Positions 837 to 55,338 are shown, counted from the stretch's first letter. The stretch: 64,000 nucleotides of DNA from Octopus vulgaris (GCA_951406725.2 OX597817.1:42594001-42658000); one strand, 5' to 3'. The notes: generated by a model from the letters alone, not told the origin. Translations and numbers: made by a program.

Positions 837-876
837 CCACTGATGAGGTCACAGAAGTGTGACGAAAGGACTCTGG
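837..876 (+). ncRNA. Minimal type I hammerhead ribozyme motif
   Basis: CCA-CTGATGA-G-GTCACA(gaag)TGTGAC-GAAA-GGAC-TC-TGG: stem I CCA/TGG, intact core boxes, perfect 6-bp stem II, minimal stem III, CUC cleavage triplet. Confidence 0.8.
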
Positions 877-939
877 CTGAAATACAATTAATATGAAATA
901 AAGCAAGCGAACACCAAATTAGACAATTCACTGTTACAC

Positions 940-1106
940 TCACATACACACACACACACACTCATGCACACACACACACATTCATGCACACACACTCACA
1001 CACACACACACACACTCATGCACACACACACACACACTCATGCACACACACACACACACTCATGCACACACATACACACACACACACAAACTCATGTACA
1101 CACACA
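940..1106. repeat. (CA)n compound microsatellite with ctcatg interruptions
   Basis: Direct reading. Confidence 0.95.
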
Positions 1107-1166
1107 GAGGGCACACCTACAAGGGGTACAATCATATATATAACTGTACCTACCGCTTATAATATA

Positions 1167-2300
1167 CACAGATATGAAGGAAGTAAATAGACACCTTTAG
1201 TCTTTGAAATTTCTGATCTAAGCCTCTTAATGTTTTCAGCGGTGTAGAATTTATAATGTAATTATTCTTTTTCATTCCAGGTGCCATTATATTGAACATT
1301 TGTGAAGAGTAACCATGCCACACACAAAAATTCAGCAGAACTGTCAGATTTTCAAAGACATCATATTGTTGGACAATCTGAAGTTGGTCATAGCCAGCGA
1401 AAAATTGACAAAAATCTTCAAATTCCTCTTGCTACTGTTAACAGAGTTATAGTGCAATTCAAAAGCCAAGGAAAAGAATCAACAGATTCTCGTCCCAGCC
1501 AACCTGTGCCTTCGTAAAGGAAGCTTTGCTGTTTGAAGAGAATTGTGGAAAACAAACCCCATTCAAAGGCTTCTGACATTGCAAAACAACTAGAAGTTAA
1601 TCCAAGAGCATGTGTTACATATCTGCATAAGCTTGGGTATTATGGACAAGCAGCTAGAAGAAAACCTCTCCTTCAACCAATTAATATCATGAAAAGAAAG
1701 AAATGGGCTAAAGAGATATCAGAAAAATCCAGTTCATTTTGGAATATAGTGATTTTCTCAGATGAATCCAGATTTGCATTATTTTCAGACAGTGGACGTG
1801 TTTGGGTCTAGAGGTTTCTCAACCAAGAATTTGATTTGAAACGACCCCAACCAACTGTGAAACATGGCAGTATCTCTATAATGGTATGGGGAGCTGTGAC
1901 CAGCAATGGTCGTTCTGAGCTGATCAAACGTGTTGGAACCATAAACTCTGAAAAATACATTGAAATACTTAAGCAATGACTACTTCCAATGTATTTACAT
2001 GATAACATAATGAAAAATGAGCTTTTATTCATGGAAGATGGGGCTCCATGCCACATAGCAAAAAGGAATCAACAATGGTTGACTGAAAATGGGATCAAAA
2101 AGCTTCCTTGGCCAAGCCAATCTCCTGTCACGAACCCCATTGAAAATCTTTGTAGCATACTACATAGAGCTATATGAAAAACTCAACAGAAACCTAGATC
2201 TAAAGAAGAATTGTTTCGATTGCTGCGGGAAAAGTAGGCAGAAATTCCACAAGAGATAATCACAAAGCTCATCAGTTCAATGCCAAAAAGAGTTGCCAGC
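1167..2300 (+). pseudogene. Decayed Tc1-family (DD34E) transposase
   Basis: ORF pieces 1302-2177 give a paired-like HTH N-terminus ([12 protein letters not shown]), ARRKPLL, FSDESRF, FMEDGAPCH, WPSQSPVTNPIENL and LISSMPKRV; frameshifts and stops; 3' end lost in (GAT)n. Confidence 0.93.
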
Positions 2301-2595
2301 GATATTGATGGAGATGGTGATGATGATGATGATGATGACGACAATGACAAAGAAAATGATGAAGATGATGAAGATGATGATGATTATGATGATGATTATG
2401 ATGATGATGTCAACAACAATGACGACGACAATGATGATAATGATGACGATGGTGATGATGATGATAACAACGATGCCGACGATGACAATGATGATGATGA
2501 TGACGATGACAATGACAAAGAAAATGATGCCGATGATGAAGATGATGATGATTATGATGATGATGTCAACAACAATGACGACGACGACAATGATG

Positions 2596-2627
<32 letters not shown>

Positions 2628-2672
2628 AACAACGATGCCGACGATGACAACAATGATGATGATGATGACAAT
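2301..2672. repeat. (GAT/GAC/AAC)n compound repeat with an internal ~175-bp higher-order duplication
   Basis: gacaatgacaaagaaaatgatg...gtcaacaacaatgacg...aacgatgccgacgatgac occurs twice. Confidence 0.9.
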
Positions 2673-2725
2673 GTACCTACCAGAATCAGTGATGAACCTT
2701 AGTGTAACATCAACATCTAGGACAG

Positions 2726-2844
2726 TGCTGCTGCTGCTTCTGCTGCTACTTCTGCTTCTGCTGCTACTTCTGCTTCTGCTGCTACTTCTGCTTCTGCTGC
2801 TACTTCTGCTTCTGCTGCTACTTCTGCTTCTGCTTCTGCTGACT

Positions 2845-2875
<31 letters not shown>
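2726..2875. repeat. 18-bp tandem repeat (ctgctgctacttctgctt)n
   Basis: Direct reading. Confidence 0.95.
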
Positions 2876-2877
<2 letters not shown>

Positions 2878-3106
2878 ATTCAAATGCAAAAGCAAAAGTC
2901 CTAGACTTTGTCTCCTAAAAATCTGATTGACAAAGTTTCCTCTTACACTCCTACAGAAGAGTCTCTTTAAACAGTTGTAAATTCATGTCTCCCCCATGTT
3001 TGCTTTTCCACCAATTCCAGTTATTGACACTGCAAAGTGGAAAATCTGCTGTTTTGATATTTGAATACTCTGTCTGTGCAACAAATTTCAGCACCTTATA
3101 TTCTAT

Positions 3107-3259
3107 ACCATCATCACCACCACCACCACCACCACCACCATCATCATCGACATCATTGCCGCTGCCGCCTCCGCCACCACCATCACCATCATCTTGATCA
3201 TCATCCTGATCATCATCAACATTATCACTGCCACAACCACCATCACCGTCAACATTATC

Positions 3260-3291
<32 letters not shown>

Positions 3292-3720
3292 CATCATCAA
3301 CACCATCATCATCATCAACATCATCACCACTGCAACCACCACCACCACCTTCATCACCATCACCACTTTCATCACCATCCCCACCACCACCATCACCGGC
3401 ACCACCGGCACCACCACCACTACTTTCATCACCACCACCATCACCACCACCTCCATCTCTATCATCTTCACCACCACCACCACCACTATCACCATCACCA
3501 TCACCATCATCATCAGTATCATCACCACTCCCAACACCAGTATCATCATCATCATAATCATCAGCAGCAACAGTAGCTTTGTCGTCATCACCACTATCAG
3601 CAGCAGCATCGACATTATCATCATCATCATCACCACTATCATGACCACCACCACAACCACCACCACCAGTATCAGCATCATCATCATCATCATCATCATC
3701 ATATTCACCACCACCATCGT
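3107..3720. repeat. (CAT/CAC)n degenerate trinucleotide tract
   Basis: Direct reading. Confidence 0.95.
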
Positions 3721-4288
3721 TTTTTAATGTCTATTTCCACTATGATAGTACATAAAGTTTACGGATGCATATGTCTGCGTGTATATGCGTGCATGCACGT
3801 TTATACGTGCACGTGTGTGTGTGTGCACGCAAACGTATTTATACATGTGTGTGTCTGTGTGTCTGTGTGTGTGTGTGTGTGTGTGTGTCTGTGTATGTAC
3901 ATGTGTGTGTGTGAAAGAGGGAGAGAGAGAGAAAGAGAGGCGGGGTGAAGATGTGCATGTCAGTGTGTTTAACTGTTAGATTATTAATACAAGAGAATTA
4001 AAAATATGCTTTTACCGAAAACTCATGAAATCTAAGTTTGTTCCCCACATCAAATATCTTGCAATGCTTTTCGGTACTGCAGTGACATGACTCAGTAATA
4101 AGTCCTTTGATGTTGGCAGAAATCAAGATCTCTATAGCAACCTTCGTGGATACATGGAATCAATTTAAAGTTTAATTTAATTACAATCACACTGTACAGT
4201 AACATATTTGTACAGTACACATCTAAAGACTAACATATTTTCACAAGTCTTTAATCAACCAGTATAAAATCAGCTATAAGTCCCAACA

Positions 4289-4802
4289 TCTCTCTGTCTC
4301 TCTCTATTTCTCTCTTTTCCCTTCTCTCTCCTCTCTCTCTTTCTCTTCTCTCTCTCTTCCCCTCTCTCCCTCTTTATCTATCTGTCTTTTTCTCTCTCTC
4401 TATTTCTCTTTTTCTCTCTCTCTCTCTCTTTCCCTCTCTCACCTGCTCTCTCTTTCTCTGTTTCTCTCTTTTTCCCCCACTCTCTCTCTCTTCCCTCTAT
4501 ATATTTCTCTCTTCTCCCTTTCTATGTCTCTCTTTTCCCCTCTCTCCCCCTCTCTCCCCTCTCTGTCTCTTCCCTTCTCTCTCCCTTCCCCTCTTTTTCC
4601 TTCTCTCTGTATCTCTCTCTCTTCACCCTCTCTCTCCCCCTCTCTCTGTCTCTTCCCTTCTCCCTCTCTCTCCCTCTCTCTCCCTCTCTCTCCCTCTCTC
4701 TCCCTCTCTCTTCCCCCTCTCTCTGTCTCTCTATCTCTTCCCCCTCTCTCTGTCTCTCTCTCTTCCCCCTCTCTGTCTCTCTCCTTCCCCTCTCTCTCTC
4801 TC
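4289..4802. repeat. (CT)n-rich polypyrimidine tract
   Basis: About 510 nt almost entirely C/T on the + strand. Confidence 0.95.
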
Positions 4803-4809
4803 GTCTGAT

Positions 4810-5112
4810 AACTAAACTGGAACCCCATCGGTTACGATGACGAGGGTTCCAGTTGATCCGATCAACAGAACAGCCTGCTCCTGAAATTTAATGGGCAAGT
4901 GGCTGAGCACTCCACAGACACATCTACCATTAATGTAGTTATCAGGGAGACTAAGAATATGTCAAAGCTGGCCCTTTGAATTACAGCTGAGTGGACTGGA
5001 GCAAGGTGGAATGAAGTGTCTTGCTCAAGGGCTCAATGTGTCACCAGGAACTGAACTCAAGACCTTATGATTGTGAACTGAATGCTCTAAACACTAAGCT
5101 ACATACCTTCAC
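4810..5112 (-). mobile_element. tRNA-headed CORE-type SINE (distinct family)
   Basis: Minus strand gives an A box (gtagcttagtgttt), B box (gagttcagttcc), ccttgagcaagacactt core and a 3' hairpin aactggaaccc...gggttccagtt. Confidence 0.7.
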
Positions 5113-5244
5113 CAACTGATAACTATTTTCGTGGGAGCTCAAGCTAATGAGGGAGCTTCAAGGTGGTTGCCCGAATAGCAGTCAAATCCACTCCTAACCC
5201 CACCCTACCTTCATGACAAAAGAATTCTTTTATTCTTCTTATTC

Positions 5245-5434
5245 TTTAACGTCCGCTTTCCATGCTAGCATGGGTTGGACGGTTCAACTGGGGTCTGGGG
5301 AGCCCGAAGGCTGCACCAGGCCAGTCAGATCTGTAGAAACACTGCCAGATCTGACTGGCCTGGTGCAGCCTTCGGGCTCCCCAGACCCCAGTTGAACCGT
5401 CCAACCCATGCTAGCATGGAAAGCGGACGTTAAA
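5245..5434. repeat. Perfect foldback of the 3' end of the (GAT)n-tailed RTE-related SINE
   Basis: 89-bp arms 5245-5333 and 5346-5434 are exact reverse complements; 12-nt loop. Confidence 0.95.
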
Positions 5435-5450
5435 TGATGATGATGATGAT

Positions 5451-5682
5451 TATTTATTTATATTATTTACAATTGATGGATATTTGTCCTCATCTTGTTT
5501 GTTGTTAACACGTTTTGGCTGATATACCCTCCAGCCTTCATCAGATGTCTTGATGAAATTTCGAACCTGTGTTCTCATTCCTAAGATATTTTTCAATGTT
5601 GTTGTTATTATTATTATTATTATTATTATTCAGGTCACTGCCTGAAATCGAATTCAGAATCTTGGGGATGATGATGATGATG

Positions 5683-5764
<82 letters not shown>

Positions 5765-5904
5765 TACCTTAGGAATGAGAACCCAGGTCCAAAATTTCCC
5801 CCCAGACACCTGATAAAAGCTGGAGGGTATATCAGCCACAAAGTTGTGTTAACAACAAACAAGATAAGGACAAATATCTGTCAAATGTAAACAATGTAAA
5901 TAAT
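5451..5904. mobile_element. Inverted pair of (TAA)n-associated elements with degenerate hammerheads; left copy has a tRNA T-arm-like piece
   Basis: Arms ~5451-5594 and ~5761-5904 are reverse complements. Hammerhead acac-CTGATGA-A-GGCTG..CAGCC-(G>A)AAAC-GTT-gtgt at 5507-5548(-) and 5806-5849(+); B-box-like ctgaattcgatttcag at 5631-5667(-). Confidence 0.75.
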
Positions 5905-5944
5905 GTACATAATTTCTCATCTCTTAAATATAGAACTGTATTAC

Positions 5945-6148
5945 TTATTCTTTTACTTATTTCAGTCATTTGACTGTGGCCATGCTACAGCGCCACCTTT
6001 AGTCGAACAAACTGAGCCCAGAACTCATTCTTTGTAAGCCTAATACTTATTCTATCGGTGTCTTTTGCCAAACCACTAAGTTACGGGGACGTAAACACAC
6101 CAACAACAGTTGTCAAGCAATGGTAGGGGGACAAATACGGACACACAA

Positions 6149-6191
<43 letters not shown>

Positions 6192-6352
6192 ACGGGCTTC
6201 TTTCAGTTTCCATCTACCAAATCTATTCACAAGGCTTTGGTCATCCCAAGGCTATATAGTAGAAGACACTTGCCCAATGTGCCACACAGTAGGACTGAAC
6301 CTGGAACCATGTGGTTGAGAAGCAAGCTTCTTAGCACACAGCCATGCCTGCA
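5945..6352 (-). mobile_element. SINE family A (CORE-type), full length
   Basis: Matches other copies from head to tail. Confidence 0.9.
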
Positions 6353-6607
6353 CCTAAAAATAATTGGTAAAAATATGGTACATGTTACTAGGCCATACTC
6401 AATCATGAATGACTGTTGATTGTACAACACTCTAAGCTGACTGAATTAACAAAAGGCTCCTTAATGAGACTTGATTTAACTAATTAAAACTAATATTAAC
6501 CCTTTAGCATTTAAACCGGCTATATCTGGCCAAAATATTATTCCTTTTTTATGTTTAAACTGACCAGATCTGGCCACCTAAACCAAATATTATTCTAAAA
6601 ATTAACA

Positions 6608-6820
6608 AGGCGGTGAGCTGGCAGAATCGTTAGCATACCGGGTGAAATGCTTAGCAGTATTTCATCTGCCGTTATGTTCTGAGTTTAGATTCCACCAGGA
6701 TCAACTTTACCTTTCATCCTTTCAGGGTTGAAGAAATAAGTACCAGTTACACACTGGGATCAATGTAATCAACTTGTCCCACAAAAAAAATCTTCAAGGC
6801 CTTGTGCCTAGAGTAGAAAT
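6608..6820 (+). mobile_element. tRNA-headed Nin/Deu-domain SINE (family B)
   Basis: ggcggtgagctggcagaatcgttagc head followed by cctttcatcctttcagggttga..aataagtaccag domain. Confidence 0.85.
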
Positions 6821-6989
6821 ATTTATTCTAAAAATTAACAGTTACGTCATCAAAATCTCGTGGTTACAAGATCATGCATGACTAATTTAAAACAATGAGA
6901 ATAAATAAGCATTATTTTTCACAGAATAATCTGATTGCTAAAGGGTTAATCACAACTGTCATCAAACTCTAATTGTAATTGCCTGCTAT

Positions 6990-7307: not shown

Positions 7308-7461
7308 CAATTGCATGCTAGTGGTATGAATTTTTTGCAGAATATTTTAAAATTAAAAAGTAATATTTTTTTATGCAAAAAAATTGTGGCTGTTTAACCA
7401 GGCATTGCTGCAGGCTGGACCTGGCCCATGAGAAGTATGTTTGGTACCCCTGTTATATATA

Positions 7462-7682
7462 CTCTTCACTCTTTTATTTGTTTCAGTCATTTGACTGTGG
7501 CCATGCTGGAGCACCACTTTTAGTCAAGCAAATCAACCCCAGGACTTATTCTTTGTAAGCCTAGTACTTATACTATCGGTCTCTCTTGCCGAACTGCTAA
7601 GTTACGGGGACATAAACACACCATCATCGGTTGTCAAGCAATGTTGGGGGACAAACACACACACACAAACATATACACACAC

Positions 7683-8924: not shown

Positions 8925-8984
8925 GTGTGTATATATATGTGTGTGTGTGTGTGGGTGTGTGTGTGTGTGTATATTTCAATATGT

Positions 8985-9185
8985 GACTGCATGTGTATCG
9001 TTGGCGATTTTCTTCCTCCGTCTTCCCTTTTTGGGACTTTTTCTATATTTCTGATGAAGAGCTCCACTTGAAACATGAAATCCTCTTCCTTTTCTTTCCT
9101 TACTTAAGCATCCAATAACACTGTACTTGTTCCACGTCCTCACATTGTTGTTTTTTCTTGTTTGTTCATGTTTGGATTAACTATA
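8985..9185 (+). mobile_element. pLTR-like element with degenerate hammerhead at 9048-9080
   Basis: TTT-CTGATGA-A-GAGC(tcc)ACTT-GAAA-CATG-AAA, explained mainly by CpG decay; ends in (TA)n; downstream sequence resembles the 45511-45845 family. Confidence 0.65.
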
Positions 9186-17711: not shown

Positions 17712-17749
<38 letters not shown>

Positions 17750-17988
17750 TATTGAGGGTAAAAATTATTATTGAAAAATAACAATTTATACCAGTGGCCA
17801 ACATGCATAAAAAAAAGTCCAAGGACTGCAAATTATATTCAAATATAAGAGGAAAACCACCAAGTGGTTTCCTTACGTGCTGAAAGTAGATACCAAATCA
17901 TCTAAACACGAAAAGTGCATTCTCATTTAATGGCGTGTTCAATATACTTGTGCAAGACACTATCAAAATATATAAAAGGGCCAGTCAG

Positions 17989-18050
17989 TTCCATACTTCG
18001 AAGTTTCACCATTAATTAATTACACAATTATCCATGGATCTTCAGTGAAA
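17989..18050 (-). ncRNA. Type I hammerhead ribozyme motif in a pLTR-like element (17747-18050) abutting (TA)n
   Basis: Minus strand reads TTTCA-CTGAAGA-T-CCAT..ATGG-T-GAAA-CTTCGAAG-TA-TGGAA: intact core, 10-nt palindromic stem III ACTTCGAAGT, GUA cleavage site. Confidence 0.85.
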
Positions 18051-18535
18051 TCATTGGACACTAAACTCTGCTTGCGAAGACCTGCTGAGGCAAGTGAAAT
18101 CAAAATCAAATTCGATGACTGGCGTCTGTGCTAGTGGAACAGTATGAGCACCATCTGAGCATGATTGTTGCCAGAGCAACAAACTGGCTTCCATGCTGGT
18201 GGTATGTAAAAAGCACCATCCAAATGCGATCATTACCAGCATTGCCTTACTGGCACTTGTGCCGGTGGCATGTGACAAAACATTCGAGCAAGGTCATTGC
18301 CAATGCTGCTGGACTGGCTCCTGTACAGGTGGAATGTAAAAAACACCATTTGAGCGTGGCCATTGCCAGTACCACCTGACTACACCCACTACACTTTTGG
18401 AGTGGCTGGCGTTAGGAAAGGCATCCAGCTGTAGAAACTCTGCCATATCAGATTGGAGCCTGGTGCAGCCATCTGGTTCACCAGACCTCAGTCAAATCGT
18501 CTAACCCATGCTAGCATGGAAAGCAGATGTTAAAC

Positions 18536-20523: not shown

Positions 20524-21078
20524 CTCACAGATTTTTAATTATTTTTTTTTTTTAACTAAACAGTTTGAAACTTTATATACTGGTGTAATTTCTCACACTG
20601 AACACGGTTTACTTTCAACATTTTTGACAAAATTTCATATCTTCGAAGTTATTTCATGTTAAAGTTGTGGTATTTGGGTAATTTTAACCAATCAGTGATG
20701 TGTATTCAGCTGAAGAAACCTACTGCTGTTTGCGATAGTAATTGAAGAGCAACAACTTCCGGGTCATCTTTACTAAATGTATTTTTCAAACACACCAAAT
20801 AATCCACGTGTAGTTGAAAAATATATTTATTAGACATGACCCAGAAGATGTTGCTCTTTGATTACTATCACAAACAGCAGTAGGTTTGTTCAGCTGAATA
20901 CATGTCATTGATTGGTTAAAATTACCCAAATACAACAACTTTAACTCGAAATAACTTCTAAAATACAAAATTTTGTCAAAAATATTGAAAGTAAACTATG
21001 TTCAGCATGAGAAATTACACCAGTATATGAAGTTTCAAACTGTTTAGTTAAAAAATAATAATTTTAAAAATCTGTGAG
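20524..21078. mobile_element. Foldback MITE with ~265-bp imperfect inverted arms
   Basis: ctcacagattttt...tttttcaa / ttgaaaaa...aaaatctgtgag with a short central spacer. Confidence 0.85.
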
Positions 21079-25609: not shown

Positions 25610-25661
<52 letters not shown>

Positions 25662-25709
25662 AGTGAATTGAAGAAATGGAGTTGAACGAAGATTGAACAG
25701 AAATCGTTT

Positions 25710-25802
25710 TATTTCATTCTACACGTGTTTCGAAAGGCACAATTTACCAAATTCCGATTGAATAATGAGACCATATTGTGTCTTTCTCTTCAGGAAGAAA
25801 TA
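25710..25802 (-). ncRNA. Type I hammerhead ribozyme, mirror copy
   Basis: Exact reverse complement of 25953-26045. Confidence 0.92.
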
Positions 25803-25952
25803 GGAAATCCGTTGGAAAAAACAAAAACAGAACAGAGGCGGAGCAAAACAAATCGAACGAGGCTCCTAAGTTTGGCCATGGGCTCTTAGGAGCCTCGTTC
25901 GATTTGTTTTGCTCCGCCTCTGTTCTGTTTTTGTTTTTTCCAACGGATTTCC

Positions 25953-26045
25953 TATTTCTTCCTGAAGAGAAAGACACAATATGGTCTCATTATTCAATCG
26001 GAATTTGGTAAATTGTGCCTTTCGAAACACGTGTAGAATGAAATA
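25953..26045 (+). ncRNA. Type I hammerhead ribozyme, intact
   Basis: TATTTCTTC-CTGAAGA-GAAAGACACAAT..ATTGTGCCTTTC-GAAA-CACGTG-TA-GAATGAAATA: long stem I with one bulge, 12-bp stem II with one mismatch, palindromic stem III ACACGTGT, cleavage after 26035. Confidence 0.92.
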
Positions 26046-26271
26046 AAACGATTTCTGTTCAATCTTCGTTCAACTCCATTTCTTCAATTCACTAATAATA
26101 TTAAAATTCAATTATCCGCACCAACGCACGGTTGCAACACCATATGGTTGTACCTCCAACCGTGCTGTCTTCTGCTGTGATTTTTGCTACCAAGGTATCG
26201 GTTAAACTTTTGATTAATCTGCAACAAGATTATTCATCTTTCTATTTCACATAATATATATATATATATAT

Positions 26272-28454
26272 GCTACAAATGTGTCCCAGAGAGAAAGGCC
26301 ACTGTACACAAGAACAAAATCCCCAGAGAGAGGAAAATTTTAATGAGACGGCGTACGAAATTTTCAAATCGCCTAAACAAACAGATTGAAAGCAGTGAAA
26401 AGTCCCGCCTAAAAATAAAACTGTTGGAAATCGAAAAATGTCTGCAACTCTCCCATGAAAAAGAAAGAGCAGACAAAGAAGCCTGGGCTATAGAAAACAT
26501 AAAATCTAACCCCAGAGCTTTCTACAGGTATGCCAAAGAAACAGCTACAGTGCACTGTAGAATAGGGCCACTCCTCGAAAAGGATGGCACACTTACAGGA
26601 AAACCAATGAGGGTAAGTGAAATACTGAATGAGCAATTCAAGAGTGTTTTCACTCCACCCCTTGGGCATCTCCAAATCACCAATCCAACTGACTTTTTTA
26701 CCACTGCAGATATAAAATCAGAGGCGGCGACGATAGATTACATCGATATAAATGAAGACGATGTAACCAAGGCTATAGATGAAATGAAAACAGACTCAGC
26801 TACTGGCCCCGATGGATTCCCGGCAATCCTCCTAAAAGCATGTAAGAGAGTCCTAGCAAGACCACTGCAGTTCCTCTTTCAGAGCTTCCTTGCAGCTGGC
26901 AAACTTCCAGGAAAACTGAAGGAAGGTAAAATATGCCCCATTCATAAAGGAGGTAGCAGAGCGGAAGCCAAGAACTATAGACCTATCTCTCTGACCTCAC
27001 ACATCAGCAAGGTCATGGAACGAATAGTCAGAAGGAAGCTGATCACCTTCCTTGAAGAGAATGACTTGCTGCCCGACACCCAACATGGTTTCCGACCAGG
27101 GAGAAGCTGTTTAACTCAGCTCCTACAACACTATGACTGGGTGCTGAAACGGCTGCTCAACCACTCAAATGTGGAAGTGATATATCTCGACTTTGCAAAG
27201 GCCTTTGATAAAGTCGATCATAGAATGATATGTCACAAACTGCGTGATCTCAACATAGTTGGAAAACTGGGAGAATGGCTTCATGACTTTCTGAAGGATA
27301 GAAGTCAGGTGGTAGTAGCCAATGGGGCCACCTCCATTAACACACAAATAGTGAGCGGTGTTCCGCAGGGCACTGTTCTGGGACCACTACTGTTCATAAT
27401 GGCCCTCTCAGACATGCCCTCAGCCACGCAGAGAGCCACGATCACAAGTTATGCAGATGATACAAAAGTTTCACAGGCAATACAGAACCCTGAGGACACT
27501 AAACACCTGCAATGTGAGCTAGACGAAATATACAAGTGGGCTGAAAAGAATAGCATGCAGTTCAATGCTGGAAAGTTTCAAGCTTTATACTATCAGCATG
27601 CAAAACTGAATGCAATACCCAATGAATACACTGGACCCGGAGGGATTGCAATCCCAGAGGCACAATCAGTGCGTGACCTGGGTATTCACATGAGTGATGA
27701 CGCGACCTTTCATGTACATGTTGCTAAACTGACAATGAAATGTAGACGGCTGGATGGATGGATTCTTAGAACCTTTAGAACAAGAGAACAAGAAACCATG
27801 ATGGTCCTCTGGAAGACACTTGTCCTAAGCCACTTTGACTATTGCTCTCAGCTATGGTCACCATCCAGTGTCAAGTTGATCACAGAACTTGAGGCGATCC
27901 AACGAAGCTACACAAAGAAGATAGCCTCTATGCAGAATGTAAGCTACTGGGAAAGACTCAAGAGATTAAAATTATATTCCCTGGAGCGTAGGCGGGAAAG
28001 ATATGCCATAATATACATCTGGAAGATCCTGGAGGGAAGTGTCCTGAACTTTGGCATCGAGAGTTACGCAAATGCCAGAACTGGGCGCCACTGCGTGGTG
28101 CCTAGGACTCCAAACCTGCCATCAAGATGTAGGACAAGATACTGTGATAGCCTGGGCTTCCGAGGCCCACAGCTCTTCAATATCCTCCCGAAGAACCTGA
28201 GAGACCTGCATGGGGTGGATACAGATGTCTTTAAAATGAAGCTGGATCTCTTCCTGTCAGGTGTCCCAGATGAACCAACTTCACGGCAGGAGGGGCAGAT
28301 GAGGGCAGCTGCATCGAACTCTCTCATGCACCAAATAGCAGTTGCTAGAAAGCCTCCATGAAGTGAAACCAAGTAGCAACACCAAATGGCGGTGCCCCAG
28401 CATGGCCACAGCTCATAAGCTGAAACTAGAATCAATCAATCAATCAATCAATCA
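26272..28454 (+). mobile_element. Young 5'-truncated CR1-clade LINE
   Basis: Reading frame open from the 5' junction, short 3' UTR, (ATCA)n tail, (TA)n on both sides. Confidence 0.92.
26343..28361 (+). CDS. LINE ORF2 reverse transcriptase (672 aa, endonuclease truncated)
   Basis: GPDG, NYRPISLTS, QHGFRPGRSC, YLDFAKAFD, GVPQGTVLGP, YADDTK, SLERRR; no stops or frameshifts. Confidence 0.95.
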   Translation: MRRRTKFSNRLNKQIESSEKSRLKIKLLEIEKCLQLSHEKERADKEAWAIENIKSNPRAFYRYAKETATVHCRIGPLLEKDGTLTGKPMRVSEILNEQFKSVFTPPLGHLQITNPTDFFTTADIKSEAATIDYIDINEDDVTKAIDEMKTDSATGPDGFPAILLKACKRVLARPLQFLFQSFLAAGKLPGKLKEGKICPIHKGGSRAEAKNYRPISLTSHISKVMERIVRRKLITFLEENDLLPDTQHGFRPGRSCLTQLLQHYDWVLKRLLNHSNVEVIYLDFAKAFDKVDHRMICHKLRDLNIVGKLGEWLHDFLKDRSQVVVANGATSINTQIVSGVPQGTVLGPLLFIMALSDMPSATQRATITSYADDTKVSQAIQNPEDTKHLQCELDEIYKWAEKNSMQFNAGKFQALYYQHAKLNAIPNEYTGPGGIAIPEAQSVRDLGIHMSDDATFHVHVAKLTMKCRRLDGWILRTFRTREQETMMVLWKTLVLSHFDYCSQLWSPSSVKLITELEAIQRSYTKKIASMQNVSYWERLKRLKLYSLERRRERYAIIYIWKILEGSVLNFGIESYANARTGRHCVVPRTPNLPSRCRTRYCDSLGFRGPQLFNILPKNLRDLHGVDTDVFKMKLDLFLSGVPDEPTSRQEGQMRAAASNSLMHQIAVARKPP

Positions 28455-36690: not shown

Positions 36691-37609
36691 GAAGCTGTAT
36701 GGAAGCTTGCTGTGTGTGTGTGTGTGTGTGTGTGTGTACACGTGTATGTATATGTGTGTGTATTTGCACCCTCACTTCTTTACAACCAGTGTTGGTTTGT
36801 TTATGTCCTTGTAAATTAGAGGTTTGGCAAAAAAGATATTGATGGAATAAGTACCAAACTTTAAAAATATATCCTGGGGTTGATTATATTTTTCGACTAG
36901 ACCCTTCAAGGTAGTGCCCCAGCATGGCTGCAATCCAATGACCAAAGCAAATAAAAAATAAAAGCAAAAAAAATTACACCATGGGTATTATTTCATATTT
37001 GTGGTGGTGTTTTGTCTCGAATCCCCATCATCCCCCATTCCATTGCAAAGAAATCTATCAATTCTATAAGGAAGCACTCTCTTACTAGACTTTTGTTCTC
37101 TATCCAACATTTTGCTTGTGCAAAGGCAGAGGTATTGTTTTCAGTCATATTTGTTTCTTTGTTTGTTTGTCTGTGGACAAGATATCTCAAGAACCGTTGG
37201 ATGGATTCAGATGAAACTTTCAAGAATGTTTGGCCTCATGACTGGCATGAACTCTTAACCCTTTTACTCTTTTAGTTGTTTCAGTCATTTAACTGCGGCT
37301 ATGCTGGAGCACCGCATTTAGTCAAGCAAATCAACCCCAGGACTTATTCTTTGTAAGCCTAGTACTTATTCTATCGGTATCTTTTGCCAAACCACTAAGT
37401 TACGGGGATGTAAACACACCAGCATTGGTTGTCAAGCGATGTTGGGGGACAAACACAGACATACAAACATATACACACACACATACATATATATATATAT
37501 ACACTTTCTCCCCATTCATCACTCTTTTGTACCATCTTATATCTCTCCCCACCACTACACACTCAATAACACTATAAAAAGAGTCAAAATTCCTGCAAAA
37601 ACTTAGTTC

Positions 37610-37648
37610 AATTTGAAGACTCCACTAGAATGGACGAAAGTGCTAATA
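37610..37648 (+). ncRNA. Degenerate hammerhead in the 37501-37782 insert
   Basis: AAT-TTGAAGA-C-TCCA(ctagaa)TGGA-C-GAAA-GTGC-TA-AT: C3>T, stem III AGTGCT probably from AGCGCT. Confidence 0.6.
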
Positions 37649-37777
37649 TATGATATATGATATATGATGTATAAAAACATGTAACATACTAACAAATATC
37701 TGTAAATAGAAAACCATCCGAATTTCTGAATACCTCATTTCTTCTAATATAAAATACCTGTACATCATCTCAAAACC

Positions 37778-37814
<37 letters not shown>

Positions 37815-37818
<4 letters not shown>

Positions 37819-38124
37819 CAAAAGGGACATTAGCCATTTGAATGTGGCTAGGGACAGGGCAGGGCGGTGGGGGGTGTTACTGTTGCATTTAGCCCCAGGC
37901 GAACATCAACGTCACCAGAAAGGCTTGACACCATCACGGCGTCCTCTATCCCGGACGCCGTGATGGTGTCAAGCCTTTCTGGTGACGTTGATGTTCGCCT
38001 GGGGCTAAATGCAACAGTAACACCCCCCACTGCCCTGCCCTGTCCCTAGCCACATTCAAATGGCTAATGTCCCTTTTGTTATGGAGCAGTTACTGTCTAT
38101 ATCTCGTTTAGAGAATTATTATTG

Positions 38125-39757: not shown

Positions 39758-40052
39758 ATATATTGTATAAAGGATCATGGGTAAGGCCAAAACAAGGCGA
39801 AGTAAATGCTAGGTAAATCACAAGAAAACGAATATGTGAATTAATGTAAACTTACCTTGTATTCAATATTCAACAATTTCTTGAAAATGGGGTCAAAACC
39901 CTGAAATATTGAATACAAGGTAAGTTTACATTAATTTACATATTTGTTTCGTTGTGATTTATCTTGCATTTACTTCACATTGTTTTGGCCTTACCCACGA
40001 TTCTTTATACAATATATTCTACACAATGCTTCAAAGTAATTATACCATTATA

Positions 40053-45142: not shown

Positions 45143-45510
45143 GTCTATGTCAACCTTGATTAAATTAATATGTCATCAAATATATTCTATCTCATATAGC
45201 TTTTCCTTTTATTTAAGACACTATATGGGATTTGGGGGAGATTTGGCAGCTATTTCTAGCAGGTCAAACAATCTTAAAGAGTTGTCCTCATAGGCTCATT
45301 GTATATTCAGTGTAACCAGAAGGTAGTAAAAAGATATGGTATGTTTAAATGTTAACCAGCAGCTCATTAAAATCTTAATTATGCAATGCACAGGTTGTAT
45401 GACTACAAATCAGATATGTCATATTGTATGACAACAGATAAATTGTAGGGTACACTGCAAGGTTACAGATAAATTGTATATCAGACCACTACATACATAT
45501 ATATATATAT

Positions 45511-45841
45511 AGGAAGAATTCACAAAAGAATCAAAAGACAAAGGACAGGTGGTGTAGACAACAAACAGATGTGTTAGTATAATGCTCAGGAAGTGAAAAA
45601 GTCTTTAATGTTTCGAGCCTACGCTCTTCCACAGAAAGGAACGCAGAAAGAAACAAGGAGAGCCACTACACACAATTTTTTCTCTCCTTGTTTCTCTCCT
45701 TGTTTTTTTTCTGTGTCCCTTTCTGTAGAAGAGCATAGGCTTGAAACGTAAAAGACTTTTTCTATTCCTGAGCGTTATACTAATACATCTGTTTGTTGTC
45801 TACACCACCTGTCTTCGTCTTTTGTTTTTTTCGTGAACTCT

Positions 45842-45845
<4 letters not shown>
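45511..45845. mobile_element. Foldback pLTR-like element with two variant hammerheads (45603-45638 -, 45719-45754 +)
   Basis: ~150-bp inverted arms in (TA)n; CTTT-CTGTRGA-A-GAGC(rtag)GCTY-GAAA-CRTW-AAAG. Confidence 0.75.
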
Positions 45846-49090: not shown

Positions 49091-49781
49091 CACTTACTGT
49101 CATTCACCTATCTCTGCTGCTATCCATCACTTGCACTCTCTTGCTTTGATACATCTTTATTGCTATACCATCATATACCCCATATTGTTTTCTATTCAAC
49201 TTCTTATTCAACCAACTACCAACAACCAGCATGTCACTATCTCTCTTCCACTCCACCTCTCCTGCCATTCTATCAATCTGTTTCCCCCCATAGTACATTA
49301 TATTATCTCCTTTTTCACCCCCTTGATCATCATTTCCTTTCTGCTCATACATCATTCCCCTTCTGTTCACAAGAGTATGAACAGATAGGGAATGAAGATT
49401 GCATAGAGTAAAGAGGACTTTTTAGTCTTACATTGAACAAGGCAACTTCTCTAATGCTGGTGTTACAAAGAAATTCACCCAGTACACAGTAATGGGGCTG
49501 GCAATTGAATGAAGACCATGCAATGTAGATAAGGCCTTTTAGTTTTGCCCTACATATAAAATCTTCTCTAGTGCAGTACCAAAATAAAATGTACTCAGTA
49601 TTCTCTGCTAAGTGGTTGATATCAGGAAAGGCACCCAGTCATAGAAATCATACCAAAAATGGAATAAAATACCAAGGTATGCTCCTCCAAATGAGAACTA
49701 AGTCAGTGATGAGCCATATAGCCCAAACCTGTATGGAAACTTAACATAAAACTAATGATGAGATTTATGATGTATATGAGA

Positions 49782-49813
<32 letters not shown>

Positions 49814-50251
49814 ATGCGTGTGTGTGTGTGTGTGTGTGTGTATACACATGTATATGCACCCATACATTCATATTACTTCACATATGTTAAATATATGAAG
49901 TAAAGATGTTGAGATGAGAGTGCAATAATGGGTAGTTATAGAGATATTGCTTCAGTAGTTTCAGCTTTGTTGTGTTGGAGACAGCAACATCATCACCCGA
50001 CAGCAACAATAACAACAAAGATGAATACAGGAACAATTCTGGACCATTTTATGTAACTCTGCTCTGCAACAAACATCATCTAATCTAATGGATAATTATT
50101 AATTTGCTTTCTTGTTTTCATTTACTTTTGCCAGTTTTGCTCCCAAAAGCACAAACCTACATACGCTCACACACATACACAAACACACATAAACACACAC
50201 AAACACACACATATTCTCTCTAACTCTTTCTTTCATGCAACTTCTCCCCCA

Positions 50252-50319
<68 letters not shown>

Positions 50320-50640
50320 GTTCTCTCTCACTCTCTCTCTCTCTTACTCACTCTCTTGTAGGAAGAAAGACAAAAAGGTTTCTTAGTGAAGTAGCAAACA
50401 TGGAAGACAAAACAAAAAGGAAAAGAATATCTGAACTACTCTAAATCATTAATCAATAGTCTTTTATTACCACTAAGGTTTCATTAACAATGAAGCAGGG
50501 ATGTGGGGGGAGAAATAATCATTCATTTAGTCAGTGCATGAACATAAAACAAATGATCTATTGAAGAAACAAAATGTCATTTGTTAATCATAAACATTGC
50601 CATTTAACTGCTGTCTTCTATGTTTTTCTTTTTATTTCAG

Positions 50641-50972
50641 ATAATCTCAAAGGAAAAGGGTTATTACTCTCTGCCACAGCAAGCATTGATATTGATGCTG
50701 CTGCGACTGCTGATGCCAATGATGAAGGACGAAAAAACAGAACTACAGAAGCTGCTAGGAAAAATGAGTCTGAACCTGTCATAGCTGCTGATCTGACAAG
50801 ATATGCAACGCCATTAGCACTGCTAAATGGCTATGGAAAAGAAATGTCAAGGCAGAAGGAAGCTTTGACTAAAAAACCTAATAGTGATGGAGTTATTATT
50901 GCAGCAGACCTTACGAAATACAATAACCCACTGGACAATGAGAAAATGGAAGAAATGACTCCATTGAAATAA
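50641..50972 (+). CDS. Terminal coding exon of an unidentified host gene
   Basis: Strong acceptor ttttctttttatttcag|, 109 non-repetitive codons to TAA in phase 1, internal peptide repeat VIAADLTRYATPL / IIAADLTKYNNPL. Confidence 0.7.
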
Positions 50973-51027
50973 ATGTCTGCTCATAGCTTTTATTTTTATA
51001 CAATAGCTTCAGTTAGTTAGAACAATT

Positions 51028-51079
<52 letters not shown>

Positions 51080-51157
51080 CATACTAATATTTATCAGATA
51101 CATATAAATACATATGTATGTACATATATATATTTATATGTGTATATGTGTGTATAG

Positions 51158-51199
<42 letters not shown>

Positions 51200-51528
51200 A
51201 GGTATATGTGTGTGTGTGCATATATATATGCGTGTAAGTGTGTGTGTATATATGTGTATATATGTGTGTATATATATGTGTATGTGTGTGCATATATATG
51301 TATATATGTGTGTGTATATATATATATATAAGGTTAGTAGAGTTAGATGTTGGAATAACCATCTAAGGGATATATTTATCCATTATACTACCAGTATAAC
51401 TACCTATGTTAACCCTGGGCATACATATGCAAGCATATCATGCTAATAGGATACGGGCAATGACAAAGATAAACATGAGTTTATCAGGAATCAAATTTAA
51501 ATTTGATTTCTCCATTTTCTGCTTAATT

Positions 51529-51572
<44 letters not shown>

Positions 51573-52030
51573 CACACACACACACATACATATGTATACA
51601 TATGTATACATATACACCAATACATGCACGCACAATTTTCTGTATGAATGTACGCACAAATATATACTTATAAACTTAAACTTGTTATATGTAATATACA
51701 TATTTTTATATGTGTGTGTATATATAATTTTATATATATATATATACTCACTCGCTCACACACATACATACATATATACATATATGCATGCATACATGCA
51801 TACATACATATATATATATGTACATACATACATACATACATATGTACGTACGTACGTACGTACGTACATACATACATAAACATTTACATACATGCATTGA
51901 CACACACAGATACACATTCAACCACATACACACTCACACACATGTGAGTGTATGAATGTATGTTTGTATATATACTTATAAACTTCAAATTGTTCTTGTT
52001 TTCATTTGCACTTTATACATGCATATATAC

Positions 52031-52104
<74 letters not shown>

Positions 52105-52147
52105 GTGTATATATATATATGTATGTATATATATATATATATACATA

Positions 52148-52244
<97 letters not shown>

Positions 52245-52609
52245 TCATCAATCACAGGAGAAAAGGTAATAAAAATTCAGTCTGTAACTTTCTGATTTAT
52301 ATAACAACATATTTAACACATTTACACATGATTTGTGAATCCATCATAAAGATATACACAGCAAGTCAAGCTTATAACAGATCGACCAATCAGAAGAAGA
52401 AGAAGAACAGAAAATACACAAGGATTTGTATCCAGTTGCTGTTTGGTATATTTAACTCTCTGCGAATCAGTCCACCAAGCTGTAGAAAGATATATAAGCA
52501 GATGAGTGTGTATTAAATAAGTTTTTAGTGATCAGCAAAACCACCTTAACCATTAAAACAAGAAGTAGATTTTGCTCATGCTAACTTCCTCCAAGTAACA
52601 ATACTTACA

Positions 52610-52885
52610 AGTATGTATGCATGTCATTGTTCAGTTTTATTTCAAGATTTCTTGCCAATAGAGAAAGAACTGGTTTCTAACCTAGATTCAAGGCTCCTTC
52701 ATTGGAATTTCAACATCAACAACAGGCTATTTTTTATGTATGTATGTATGTATGTATGTATGTCTGAAGCTGTGTTTGTATGTATGTATGCATGTATATT
52801 TATATGTATGTATGTATGCATGTATGTTTATATGTATGTATGTATGCATGTATGTTTATATGTATGTATGTATATACGTACGTAC

Positions 52886-52916
<31 letters not shown>

Positions 52917-52930
52917 TGTATGTATGTACG
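52610..52930 (-). mobile_element. Terminal module of the (CATA)n-associated R4/Dong-like element
   Basis: Reverse complement of 11978-12085 followed by (TATG)n. Confidence 0.75.
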
Positions 52931-53199
52931 TATTTTCTCTTCTCTTTTTAATTATTTAAATTCATCCTCTGAGGACGGAGCTGGTTTTTAATAAAGATAC
53001 AAAACTTCATCTTTGGAATGTAGGTAACGAAAACAGTGTCACAATTTAAACTTGAGAATGGTCTTGTATGTTTTTATTGTTCCACTTATAGATTGTATTT
53101 GTAATGAGTAAGTTAGTTGGTTGATGTCAGTAAATGTCAGTGAGGCATTTACTTGCATAACCAAGCACATCAATTATTGTTGGTATAAATTTAAATTTC

Positions 53200-53548
53200 T
53201 AAAGCACCATCCAAACGTGGTTGATGCCAGTGTCGCCTAACTGGCTCCCATGCTGGTGGTACATAAAAAGCACCCAATACACTCTCAGAGTGGTTGGCAT
53301 TAGGAAGGACGTCCAGCTGCAGAAACCTTGCTGGATTAGATTGGAGCCTGGTGCAGCCTTCTGGCTTGCCAATCCTCAGTCAAACCGTCAAACCCATGCC
53401 TGCATGGAAAACAGATGTTAAACAATGATGACGACGATGACGATGATGATGATGGTGATGATGATGATGATGATGATGATGACGTCGACGATGTTGACGA
53501 TGGTGACAATGATGACGACAATGATGATGATGGTAGTGGTGGTGGTGA

Positions 53549-53579
<31 letters not shown>

Positions 53580-53638
53580 GTTGACGATGGTGACGATGAT
53601 GACGACGATGATGATGATGGTTGTGGTGGTGGTGGTGG

Positions 53639-53676
<38 letters not shown>

Positions 53677-53725
53677 CCGATGACGATGACGGTGATGATG
53701 AAGATGATGATGATGATGATGATAT
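53200..53725 (+). mobile_element. SINE-like family D with expanded (GAT)n tail
   Basis: Similarity to other copies. Confidence 0.85.
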
Positions 53726-54099
53726 AAAAAACTGGAGGTTTCAGAGTAGCTGTCTATAGTTATCCTTTCTCCATGATTTCTTTAAACAACAATATTTATC
53801 CTGTTATGCCTACACTTGACAGATGCTTTGATGAGAATGTTCCACCATTGTTTTGTTTGTGTTGATGTTTATGTATGTATTCAATAACAGGGGATTCTCT
53901 ATATTTATTCCAAGATAGATTTTTTTTTTCCAGATAGCATTGTATGTTGTTTTTGTGATTACATCCTGTAGCATAGGGAGTTAGTACCTTAATGATATTT
54001 TTAGGCAGTTGCTAATCACACGTGGAATGTCTTCCACAGAAATATGACATAATTCTACATTTACAATTACATCTTGGAACTCCAAGGACTTCACTGTCT

Positions 54100-54180
<81 letters not shown>

Positions 54181-54264
54181 CTTTTCTCTCTCTATATATA
54201 TATAGTCAGTTGAAGATATAGTTCCTTTATAAAATCCAGAGATCAACTAGTGTTATCAATGATA

Positions 54265-54785
54265 TCATCATCATCACCATCATCATCGTTTAACTCTGCT
54301 TTCCATGCTGGCATGGGTTGGACGGTTTGACTGAGGACTGGTGAGCCAGAGGCTGCACCAGGCTCCAATCTGATCTGGCAAAGTTTCTACAGCTGGATAC
54401 CCTTCCTAATGCCAACCACTCCGAGAGTGCAGTGGCTGCTTTTTACGTGTCACTGGCACGAGGGCCAGTCAGGCAGTTCTAGCAACGACCACGCTCAAAA
54501 GGTGTTTTTATGTGCTACCTGGATGGGAGCCAGTGCAGCGGCACTGGCAACGACCACACTCAAATGTTTTTCATGTGCCACCAGCACATGTGCCAGTAAG
54601 GCGATGCTGGCAACAATGATGCTCGAATGCTACTTTTCACGTGTCACCAGCATGGGAGTCATCCATGTCCCTGGCAACGATCACACTCAGATATGCTCCT
54701 TTTAACATTCCCCTGGCACAAGTGCCAATCAGGCTGTACTGTCTTCGGCCATGTCAGTGATTTAGATTTGTTTCCACTTGCCTCA
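54265..54785 (-). mobile_element. SINE-like family D with ~6 tandem modules
   Basis: Similarity to 9255-9880. Confidence 0.85.
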
Positions 54786-54922
54786 ATACATTGGGGTAAG
54801 TCTCTCAATATATAGGGTTAAACAGTCTAATATACAATATGAACATTGAAAATAGTTTAATACAAATAAAATTTAAATGAACATATATTAATATAAAATC
54901 AAATACAATTTGTATAAGAGGT

Positions 54923-55036
54923 GCCTACACATGTTTCAATAAGGTCACTATGTAAACAGTGATTCAGAATATTCGAACCATGTTAATAGTCTTAGATGTA
55001 AAAAATGACAACAAAGTGTCCAGGTATCTTCAGGGC
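54923..55036 (-). ncRNA. Degenerate hammerhead with long stem II region
   Basis: Minus strand GCC-CTGAAGA-(~90 nt)-GAAA-CATGTG-TA-GGC; stem III ACATGTGT probably from ACACGTGT; stem II pairing is weak. Confidence 0.55.
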
Positions 55037-55154
55037 TATCTCATTCAAAAGGCTAATACTTACATATTTTTCCCACAGGAATATATAGATATAGATATAG
55101 TGGTGGGGGGAGCCATCTGATAAACCATAAGTCAGTTAAAAAAGCAGAGTGGGC

Positions 55155-55338
55155 ATATTAATCAAAGTGTACAGTATTATATATCCCTTATGGCTGGTCT
55201 TACCAATTGGTGTCGCACGAGGAGGTTCAACAGAGTATAATCAGGCTGTCACCTAACATTCCATTGAACCTGTAGTGTGAAACCAATTGGTAAGATCGGC
55301 CATAATGGATGTATAATACTGTACAATTTGATTAATAT
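55155..55338. mobile_element. Short foldback carrying the 3' half of a hammerhead
   Basis: ~75-bp inverted arms; GAAA-CCAATTGG-TA at 55279-55292; ends in (TA)n; no CUGA box seen. Confidence 0.6.

Follow-up and report, generated by a model that had tools for sequence, protein, structure and literature searches.

The hammerhead-shaped motifs scattered over the window, a 64,000-nt stretch of Octopus vulgaris DNA (GCA_951406725.2 OX597817.1:42594001-42658000), very probably mark 5'-truncated, partly inverted insertions of several families of Penelope-like elements (PLEs), whose 3' pseudo-LTR carries a hammerhead that is likely to cleave only as a dimer and was likely not needed for these insertions. 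An earlier note on this DNA had identified the motifs as type I, mostly minimal retroelement hammerheads, diverse in family and akin to those of Penelope pseudo-LTRs, and we reach the same identification. The note went on to propose a radiation of non-coding elements. We find instead that the loci are mostly the 3' ends of 5'-truncated coding PLEs, with a master element for family A and ORF remnants for families B, C, D, H and I.

Hammerhead loci in the window

All 13 stretches cited previously contain the motif described, on the strand given. The ten loci are all members of repeat families (A to J), with the following features.

598-670, minus strand: inverted tail piece of family D, abutting (AT)n at 564-597; boundaries approximate, set by eye
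667-919, plus strand: 3' end of family D, a 5'-truncated PLE; hammerhead 837-876 with canonical boxes and a non-palindromic stem III
5456-5667, minus strand: inverted arm of family B; decayed minimal hammerhead 5507-5548, internal (AAT)n, fragment of an A/B-box-like head at 5614-5667
5668-5920, plus strand: direct arm of family B, 3' end of a Penelope/Poseidon-type PLE; internal (AAT)n, damaged hammerhead 5806-5849
8973-9181, plus strand: short copy of family E between microsatellites; hammerhead 9048-9080, G17 subfamily, CpG-decayed
17750-18052, minus strand: copy of family G ending at (TA)n 17716-17747; hammerhead 17989-18050
25654-25870, minus strand: inverted arm of family A that ends at (TA)n; the hammerhead is intact, with its predicted cut at 25720
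25885-26252, plus strand: direct arm of family A; intact hammerhead 25953-26045, predicted cut after 26035
37502-37782, plus strand: family H (Neptune-type PLE), 3' end stopping at (TA)n; hammerhead 37610-37648 is non-canonical (U3, C10.1-C11.1)
39758-40041, fold-back of family F: hammerhead 39878-39913 (plus), U3-A8 core covariation
45504-45843, fold-back of family C between (TA)n tracts: hammerheads 45603-45638 (minus) and 45719-45754 (plus)
54834-55083, minus strand: family I (Hydra-type PLE), 3' end; hammerhead 54923-55036 with a long stem II, from the U10.1-U11.1 subfamily
55155-55345, fold-back of family J: hammerhead 3' half only, 55279-55292 (plus)
57882-57978, minus strand: tail-only fragment of family I without hammerhead, absent from the earlier list

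Five fold-backs exist, as had been described, and family D has its inverted tail piece in addition; another fold-back, at 20524-21078, is without a hammerhead. Nine of the loci led to families of 337-3,860 first-look candidates each, and two further copies of half motif J turned up among 40 candidates scored.

We looked for the type I boxes CUGANGA (or UUGANAA), GAAA and UH, together with stems I and II. A strict descriptor matched the window three times (840 plus, 25720 minus, 25962 plus), against a mean of 0.16 and a maximum of two in 100 local dinucleotide shuffles. By itself, the CUGANGA box was not enriched (36 against 33.9). Of the 12 full motifs, three satisfy the descriptor, the rest being decayed copies or members of families with non-canonical cores. 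The comparison with shuffled sequence that had been suggested as a check was carried to a genome sample of 49 evenly spaced 10-kb pieces (490 kb), where a minimal-hammerhead descriptor found 10 matches against 1.25 in shuffled sequence (12 shuffles), an eight-fold excess. Six matches had a palindromic stem III, against 0.08 in shuffled sequence, although the descriptor does not demand a palindrome; stem pairing, being a requirement of the descriptor, is no independent evidence of structure. Judged by sequence, the window motifs are real hammerhead-ribozyme sequences, mostly in decayed copies.

The hammerhead matches formed 16 clusters, and a G10.1-C11.1 pair is present in nine of 10 family representatives. 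Canonical boxes with both stems form the majority in A (75/76 arms), D (17/26), F (12/18), B (41/80) and I (12/21), and are rare in C (1/55; A6U) and in the window's E subfamily (4/31; G17). In the hammerheads of G and H, stem II has a mismatch at its base. Stem III is often palindromic, as previously stated, with D non-palindromic and I only wobble-palindromic. By eye, no compensatory stem changes stood out within family alignments, MFE folding of single motifs gave nothing informative, and an Rfam scan of the window returned no hammerhead among the best 150 of 240 matches. The density of one locus per 6 kb given before applies to the window; the genome sample holds about 26 loci in 490 kb, or about one per 19 kb, a lower bound for which six of the 21 probes were taken from the sample itself.

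Coding elements behind the families

No autonomous Penelope ORF lies within the window, as had been noted. Linked Penelope RT/GIY-YIG ORFs, suggested as something to look for, were found upstream of longer copies in six families. On sequence evidence, these six are continuous with PLE RT/GIY-YIG genes of Hydra (A and I), Poseidon (B) and Neptune type (C, H and D), clades being assigned by published diagnostic motifs and not by an RT tree.

Family A is young, with intact frames. An intact Hydra-type PLE elsewhere in the genome has a pseudo-LTR that shares 98.7% identity with the direct arm in the window; the 904-aa master ORF of this PLE comprises RT and a C-terminal endonuclease and is followed by the same hammerhead. 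Ten of 150 endonuclease matches scored lie in open frames of 899-908 aa, and a tandem array repeats with a 3,624-bp period at 99.9% identity, with one hammerhead per unit. The ORF matched no Pfam family and a PDB sequence search gave nothing useful; its RT/GIY-YIG identity comes from motifs and 107 homologues. Contigs of four sequencing runs, presumed to be RNA, covered 29-30 of 30 A-element bins and are informative on neither ends nor transcription.

An assignment of A to Neptune was dropped in favour of Hydra. With the Hydra clade as described in the text of Craig et al. 2021 (PMC8557442), A and I share a C-terminal endonuclease without CCHH (the GIY-YIG motif of A has one Cys inside), a DKT motif (in A and 66/66 homologues), CxxC before a conserved E (in A and 62/66 homologues) and a canonical hammerhead; A also shares insertion at (TA)n. 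Unlike that clade, A lacks the CxCX5C linker (47/66 homologues, or 57/66 with a spacer of 4-6, against 0/36 A endonuclease copies) and the CxH motif, has RWL in place of RWK, and forms a 3.6-kb unit whose 904-aa ORF includes a long low-complexity insert, Hydra elements being generally <3 kb. Family A lacks the Cys linker proposed for (TA)n targeting, yet it sits at microsatellites, a combination that we have not found in print. Young, intact and linker-less, A offers a direct test of the linker's role in TA targeting. For family I, one locus (L231) contains an ORF remnant and a 1.3-kb UTR between inverted hammerheads.

Four H loci have in common 1.5-3 kb with matches to RVT_1 (E 1.5e-8) and GIY-YIG (E 1.8e-4), and four D loci about 1 kb with a match to GIY-YIG (E 0.008), endonuclease only. 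The master evidence for C is a locus (L293) whose ORF matches RVT_1 (E 2.5e-7) and, weakly, GIY-YIG (E 0.02); five of 30 longer copies extend into this ORF. The ORFs beside C in L229 and beside H in L230 are neighbouring insertions and were rejected as masters. Translations of decayed copies, read by eye, give C, H and D a CX2-5CxxC-type linker and a CCHH endonuclease, and longer D copies have a GIY-YIG domain with a CX4CxxC linker and the CCHH cysteines. As presented in the text of PMC8557442, the Neptune clade shares the CX4CxxC linker and, within the GIY-YIG motif, the CCHH cysteines, and C and H likewise end at (TA)n. What sets these families apart from the Neptune elements there is the A6U core of C and, in H, U3 together with either G8 or A8 and a C-C mismatch at the stem II base. 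D may belong to Neptune or to Nematis.

Seven longer B copies have in common 0.5-1.2 kb upstream that correspond to RT, thumb and a CCHH-type endonuclease without the Zn-finger linker (translations of L336 and L337); short B coding pieces found no Pfam support. This domain layout is that given for the Poseidon element PAc of Anolis (Frangieh et al. 2024, PMC11167929). Unlike that of PAc, the 3' UTR of B contains (AAT)n and an A/B-box-like segment.

Family F is tentatively linked to a PLE ORF through one copy, by eye, neither Pfam nor BLAST supporting the link; its inverted arm in the window (39758-39870) is without the ribozyme's 5' half. Among the loci examined, we found no master ORF for E (a Hydra-type ORF beside E in L228 is not a link, as an (AT)n tract intervenes), no ORF for G, and neither a master nor a linked ORF for J, whose hammerhead lost its 5' half at the inversion junction. 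The G hammerhead combines a U10.1-U11.1 mismatch with a palindromic stem III, and elsewhere in the genome G forms tandem copies of ~430-500 bp. Both these tandems and the U-U base of stem II resemble axolotl HHR_Amex2 as described in PMC7229834.

Insertion, cleavage and alternative readings

Pseudo-LTRs, partial tandems, 5' inversions and a one-sided tail were all observed, with hot spots of truncation and inversion upstream of the ribozyme. PLEs are known for fold-backs, for one-sided tails and for insertion at (TA)n. The loci often sit at (TA)n, as had been seen; A, C, E, F and H have (TA)n flanks. Against a null of 8.3%, a microsatellite directly follows the 3' end in 73 of 88 arms of A, 29 of 60 of C, 8 of 28 of D, 18 of 33 of E, 24 of 41 of F and 10 of 19 of H. 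The association claimed for the motifs does not extend to B (1 of 91 arms), whose (TAA)n tract is internal to the element. The counts for G (2/16) and I (0/22) are uninterpretable, since the references stopped short of the true 3' ends. The direct arm of A has a one-sided tail of ~150 nt beyond the hammerhead, ending at (TA)n, and the modal 3' ends of the family lie at +230 (44/88 arms) and +66 (22/88) from the cut. The 5' ends are sharp in C and in E (27/32 between -107 and -96), so many of these copies may stem from short non-coding templates.

Published PLE biochemistry suggests a route to such loci. The RT/GIY-YIG protein would nick AT-rich DNA, and reverse transcription would begin internally, at either of two points downstream of the hammerhead (in A, +66 or +230 from the cut), leaving the one-sided tail. 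The RT would copy across the uncleaved hammerhead and then stop early or fold back, often near a small hairpin, the fold-back giving head-to-head arms. Inserted copies would decay neutrally, and new insertions landing in TA tracts beside older ones would make the families pile up. The internal initiation described for PAc in PMC11167929 matches the two fixed 3' ends and uncleaved templates here; unlike PAc, with its tail of 30-40 nt, A has a tail of ~165 nt, upstream of the ATG.

We could detect no genomic footprint of the ribozyme processing proposed earlier. Only two of 337 arms in a biased set start at the predicted cut, and among 30 B copies chosen without this bias, by sequence downstream of the cut, 29 extend across it and one starts exactly there; the unbiased test covers family B only. 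These hammerheads are likely to cut RNA only as pairs or dimers on tandem transcripts. Those in a fold-back lie on opposite strands and so cannot be mutual dimer partners in one transcript.

The short B copies, and these only, could be SINE-like: a captured tRNA-like promoter within the 3' UTR would drive Pol III transcription, and the Poseidon enzyme would copy the transcripts. We regard this as a possibility, though not the favoured one. Upstream of the (AAT)n tract there are, by eye, what we take to be A-box-like and B-box-like motifs with tRNA-like spacing. In keeping with such a promoter, 15 of 30 head-reaching arms start 2-14 nt upstream of the A box, five of them at exactly -14, and three of the 30 reach further upstream; in the unbiased set, the start lies between -14 and +7 in nine of the 13 copies that have the head. 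Short B copies thus often begin at the Pol III-like A box, which we have not found in print. However, the head matches no Rfam tRNA, relaxed ARAGORN returned only noise, and the head sits within the 3' UTR of a coding PLE; a reading of B as a plain SINE was dropped. Moreover, a small hairpin occupies the same spot, and given that truncations in A likewise cluster near a hairpin, RT stalling would suffice and Pol III would be unneeded.

Somewhat unlikely is that the fold is kept as a protein-binding or folding signal, the variant cores (A6U, G17, U-U or C-C at 10.1-11.1) being catalytically dead. Both C hammerheads in the window, at the 3' end of a Neptune-type PLE, have an A6U core, and at position 6 the family has U in at least 14,068 exact copies and a different base in 470. 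That C reached such numbers with U6 speaks for a dead core, as do reports of unimpaired in vitro insertion by cleavage mutants (PMC11167929), of slow cleavage after A6 changes (PMC3088659) and of minimal hammerheads impaired by G17 (PMC3884650). On the other hand, the rest of the C core hardly changes from one subfamily to the next, in contrast to the variable neutral positions 7 and 17, a pattern expected of catalytic constraint, E is mostly canonical (G17 in 13 of the first 100 copies listed), and the axolotl hammerhead with a U-U stem II base is described as weakly active (PMC7229834). The A6U core of C is a feature that we have not found in print: a search for A6U or CUGUNGA hammerheads gave no relevant paper among those listed, and the minimal type I hammerheads compared here from PMC4209133 differ from C in this respect, although the supplements of that paper (including its alignments) and of PMC8557442, or the Terminon paper (Arkhipova 2017), might hold one. 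A more speculative proposal, which we consider unlikely, is that C is a still-catalytic U6 hammerhead selected through subfamily waves; together with the linker-less TA targeting of A and a Pol III-headed, Poseidon-mobilised SINE in B, it would form a natural experiment in which PLE ribozymes are tuned slow so that uncleaved pseudo-LTR RNA serves as template.

The reading of the earlier note, an independent radiation of non-coding, ribozyme-processed retrozymes that are circularised and copied in trans, is improbable. It would account for the ORF-less G tandems, the tandems of two to three units in some C copies and the lack of a master for E, G and J, and retrozymes have been reported to derive from PLE pseudo-LTRs (bioRxiv 10.64898/2026.07.22.740005), so that the two classes grade into each other. 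Metazoan non-LTR retrozymes, as described there and in PMC7229834, also have type I hammerheads in short repeats; unlike these, the loci in the window occur singly or inverted and are for the most part continuous with coding PLEs. Six of the 10 families are continuous with PLE ORFs, no window locus is tandem, and copies span both sides of the cut instead of forming cut-to-cut units. Non-coding head-to-tail hammerhead units occur in part of G and some C elsewhere, and neither in the window loci nor in A, B, D, H and I. Finally, chance look-alikes within AT-rich repeats, which the unenriched CUGANGA box and the nine of 12 motifs failing the strict descriptor might suggest, are already refuted by the excess in the genome sample, especially of palindromic matches, and the conserved G10.1-C11.1 pair; in A, B, D and F, moreover, the majority sequence is an intact hammerhead.

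Relation to known elements

Truncated PLE insertions with a 3' hammerhead fit what has been described before, the pairing of hammerheads with PLEs being already known from other animals. According to the text of Cervera and De la Pena 2014 (PMC4209133), minimal type I hammerheads of PLE pseudo-LTRs have the same extra nucleotide after A9, the same G10.1-C11.1 and a palindromic 15.2-16.2; metazoan PLEs there also have thousands of solo or opposite-strand copies 100-700 bp apart and many families per genome, and a U3-A8 variant is reported, as in family F. The O. vulgaris repeat annotation contains 31 recently active PLE families, its main text being silent on ribozymes (PMC13282606), and our search for hammerheads in the octopus and cephalopod literature gave as relevant finds only PMC8557442 and a squid genome paper. 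What we describe seems to be a known association in a genome where it was undescribed.

Extrapolated from the 490-kb sample, a density of at least one locus per 19 kb implies some 150,000 remnants in order of magnitude. If catalytic, family C would extend the range of natural hammerhead cores; standard descriptors overlook it. The finding bears on the role of the hammerhead in PLEs and on the basis of their microsatellite targeting.

Hammerhead families in the window and across the genome

Every hammerhead-shaped stretch cited in an earlier note on this DNA was found in the window sequence. The motifs belong to ten repeat families, A to J, whose single copies (arms) are often halves of inverted fold-backs.

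25.7/25.95 kb, family A
5.5/5.8 kb, family B
45.6/45.7 kb, family C
837, family D
9048, family E
39.9 kb, family F
18.0 kb, family G
37.6 kb, family H
55.0 kb, family I
55279, family J

The window has 38% GC, no N and many microsatellites. A strict descriptor gave three matches in the window, compared with 0.16 in 100 local shuffles. Most window copies are decayed, and only D and the two A arms satisfy this descriptor. A minimal-hammerhead descriptor applied to 49 evenly placed 10-kb samples of the genome returned ten matches, six of them palindromic, whereas 12 shuffles gave 1.25 and 0.08, respectively. In 1.64 Mb of collected loci, 79 unique descriptor matches fell into 16 clusters. G10.1-C11.1, which the descriptor does not require, is present in nine of ten representatives (of clusters that have at least two members or are palindromic). 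A search of the genome (2.8 Gb, 227 contigs) yielded 337-3,860 first-look candidates per family for nine families. The hammerhead motifs described in the earlier note are real, as is their family diversity. Exact-pattern counts were 1,785 arms for A, 14,068 for C and 3,606 for E, with reversed controls at 0. About ten more hammerhead families, absent from the window, occur at L253, L256, L259, L269, L279, L283, L099, L144, L153, L217 and L229; stem III is long and palindromic in several of these, and they include two further cases of U3-A8.

The proposed frequency of roughly one locus per 6 kb describes the window (ten loci in 64 kb) but not the 490-kb genome sample, which contains ~26 loci (22 merged clusters, four of these uniting two families). 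The resulting density, one locus in 19 kb, is a lower bound, as six of the ten window families are missing from the sample and many rare families thus went unprobed.

Hammerhead cores

Canonical boxes were present in 75 of 76 arms of A, 17/26 of D, 12/18 of F, 12/21 of I, 41/80 of B, 5/12 of G, 7/18 of H, 4/31 of E and 1/55 of C, in arm sets biased toward the window subfamilies. The F core is U3-A8, an already published variant. Position 6 of the C core carries U in 14,068 exact matches, compared with 470 in which the base differs; position 7 is variable (T 45, C 23, A 22 and G 10 in the first 100 matches listed), position 17 is A or U, and the remaining core positions are nearly fixed. This is how a constrained hammerhead would vary, although a few subfamily founders could also yield the pattern by chance. 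G17 is in the minority in E (13 of the first 100 matches listed). G and I mostly have U10.1-U11.1, in common with an axolotl ribozyme described as weakly active in PMC7229834. A natural A6C variant is slow, according to PMC3088659. We found no A6U hammerhead in the literature searched, though one may already have been described, for example in the supplementary data of PMC4209133 or PMC8557442 or in the Terminon study.

Linkage to Penelope-like elements

A copies are 99-100% identical, carry (TA)n at their ends and a one-sided tail, and are often paired with an inverted truncated copy. Two longer copies extend into an endonuclease frame, and a genome search with this frame gave 150 scored matches, including 10 frames of 899-908 amino acids. 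At locus L222, a 904-residue reverse transcriptase (RT)-endonuclease ORF is followed by the same hammerhead, with 98.7% identity to the window A copy. A tandem array of A with a 3,624-bp unit (99.9% identity) is located at L224-L225. Within the L222 element, a contig from run X2, which we guess to be RNA, skips 1,901 nt (4321 to 6223) with GT..AG ends; given 27 letters on the short side, a splice and a genomic deletion are both possible. Directly after the A tail in the window begins a 715-residue open frame (26214-28361, forward strand; RVT_1 E 5e-31), whose motifs we take to resemble a CR1/L2-type LINE rather than a Penelope-like element (PLE).

By the motif diagnostics in PMC8557442, A is classed as Hydra-like, since it has DKT and CxxC before E and lacks CCHH. 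RWK and CxH are also absent. The CxCX5C linker was found in none of the 36 A copies examined and in 47 of 66 homologues.

Family I is joined to a decayed Hydra-type ORF at L231. Followed upstream, B passes through an internal (AAT)n tract and an A/B-box-like segment and leads into a Poseidon-type RT with endonuclease. Upstream, H and C reach Neptune-type ORFs that match RVT_1 and GIY-YIG, and D reaches an endonuclease whose linker has the form CX4CxxC. One F copy has a possible endonuclease end, for which Pfam and BLAST gave no support. No linked ORF was found for E, G and J in the loci examined; G forms tandems of about 430-500 bp. C or related copies lie inside TA tracts that end other PLE copies (L229, L031, L109, L218), and such insertions make families pile up and create false ORF links.

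The earlier note saw no autonomous Penelope ORF, and indeed the window contains no PLE ORF; remnants are found 8-10 kb to its left. These are inverted and Hydra-type (L033:150-1817), with a small J piece ~500 nt downstream.

Insertion ends and a possible mechanism

Microsatellite flanks occur in A, C, E, F and H; only 1 of 91 B arms has them. The 3' ends of A are fixed downstream of the ribozyme, at +230 from the predicted cut in 44 of 88 arms and at +66 in 22. The 5' ends of arms lie upstream of the predicted cut. Among 337 truncated arms, a collection in which longer copies are over-represented, only 2 begin no more than 2 nt from the cut. Of 30 B copies picked by downstream sequence alone, 29 cross the cut and one begins exactly there. 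Based on PMC11167929, RT initiation at two internal sites would generate the tail, the main template would be uncleaved RNA, and the ribozyme would act with the help of protein and would not be required for insertion in vitro. The palindromic stem III may support a dimeric fold on tandem transcripts, for instance from the A array, as suggested by PMC4209133; the arms of a fold-back are oppositely oriented and cannot form such a dimer within one RNA.

Truncation and inversion points of A cluster at -171 to -151, next to a small hairpin, a cluster that is partly selected because the search required sequence up to -151. Its position suggests fold-back priming. Of the 30 B arms that contain the head, 15 begin 2-14 nt before the A-box-like motif, which fits both Pol III initiation and hairpin stalling.

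The window contains other fold-backs. That at 37815-38082 (97%) adjoins the (TA)n tract at the end of H and shares a one-sided tail with a copy at L127; it is probably a further PLE-like 3' end that was truncated before reaching a ribozyme. The 87% fold-back at 20524-21078 has no hammerhead, is related to pieces at eight places in the 490-kb sample and is probably a MITE. A short repeat that is very common forms a 95% fold-back at 5245-5434, immediately next to the B insertion.

The radiation of non-coding elements proposed in the earlier note is mostly not borne out, with A, B, C, D, H and I all joined to PLE ORFs. Rather than a new class, these loci represent the pseudo-LTR hammerhead already known from PLEs, left behind as debris from at least three clades. 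Variants that merit bench tests are the A6U core, Hydra family A, which targets TA although it lacks the linker, and a possible Pol III-headed derivative of B; some of these may already be described.
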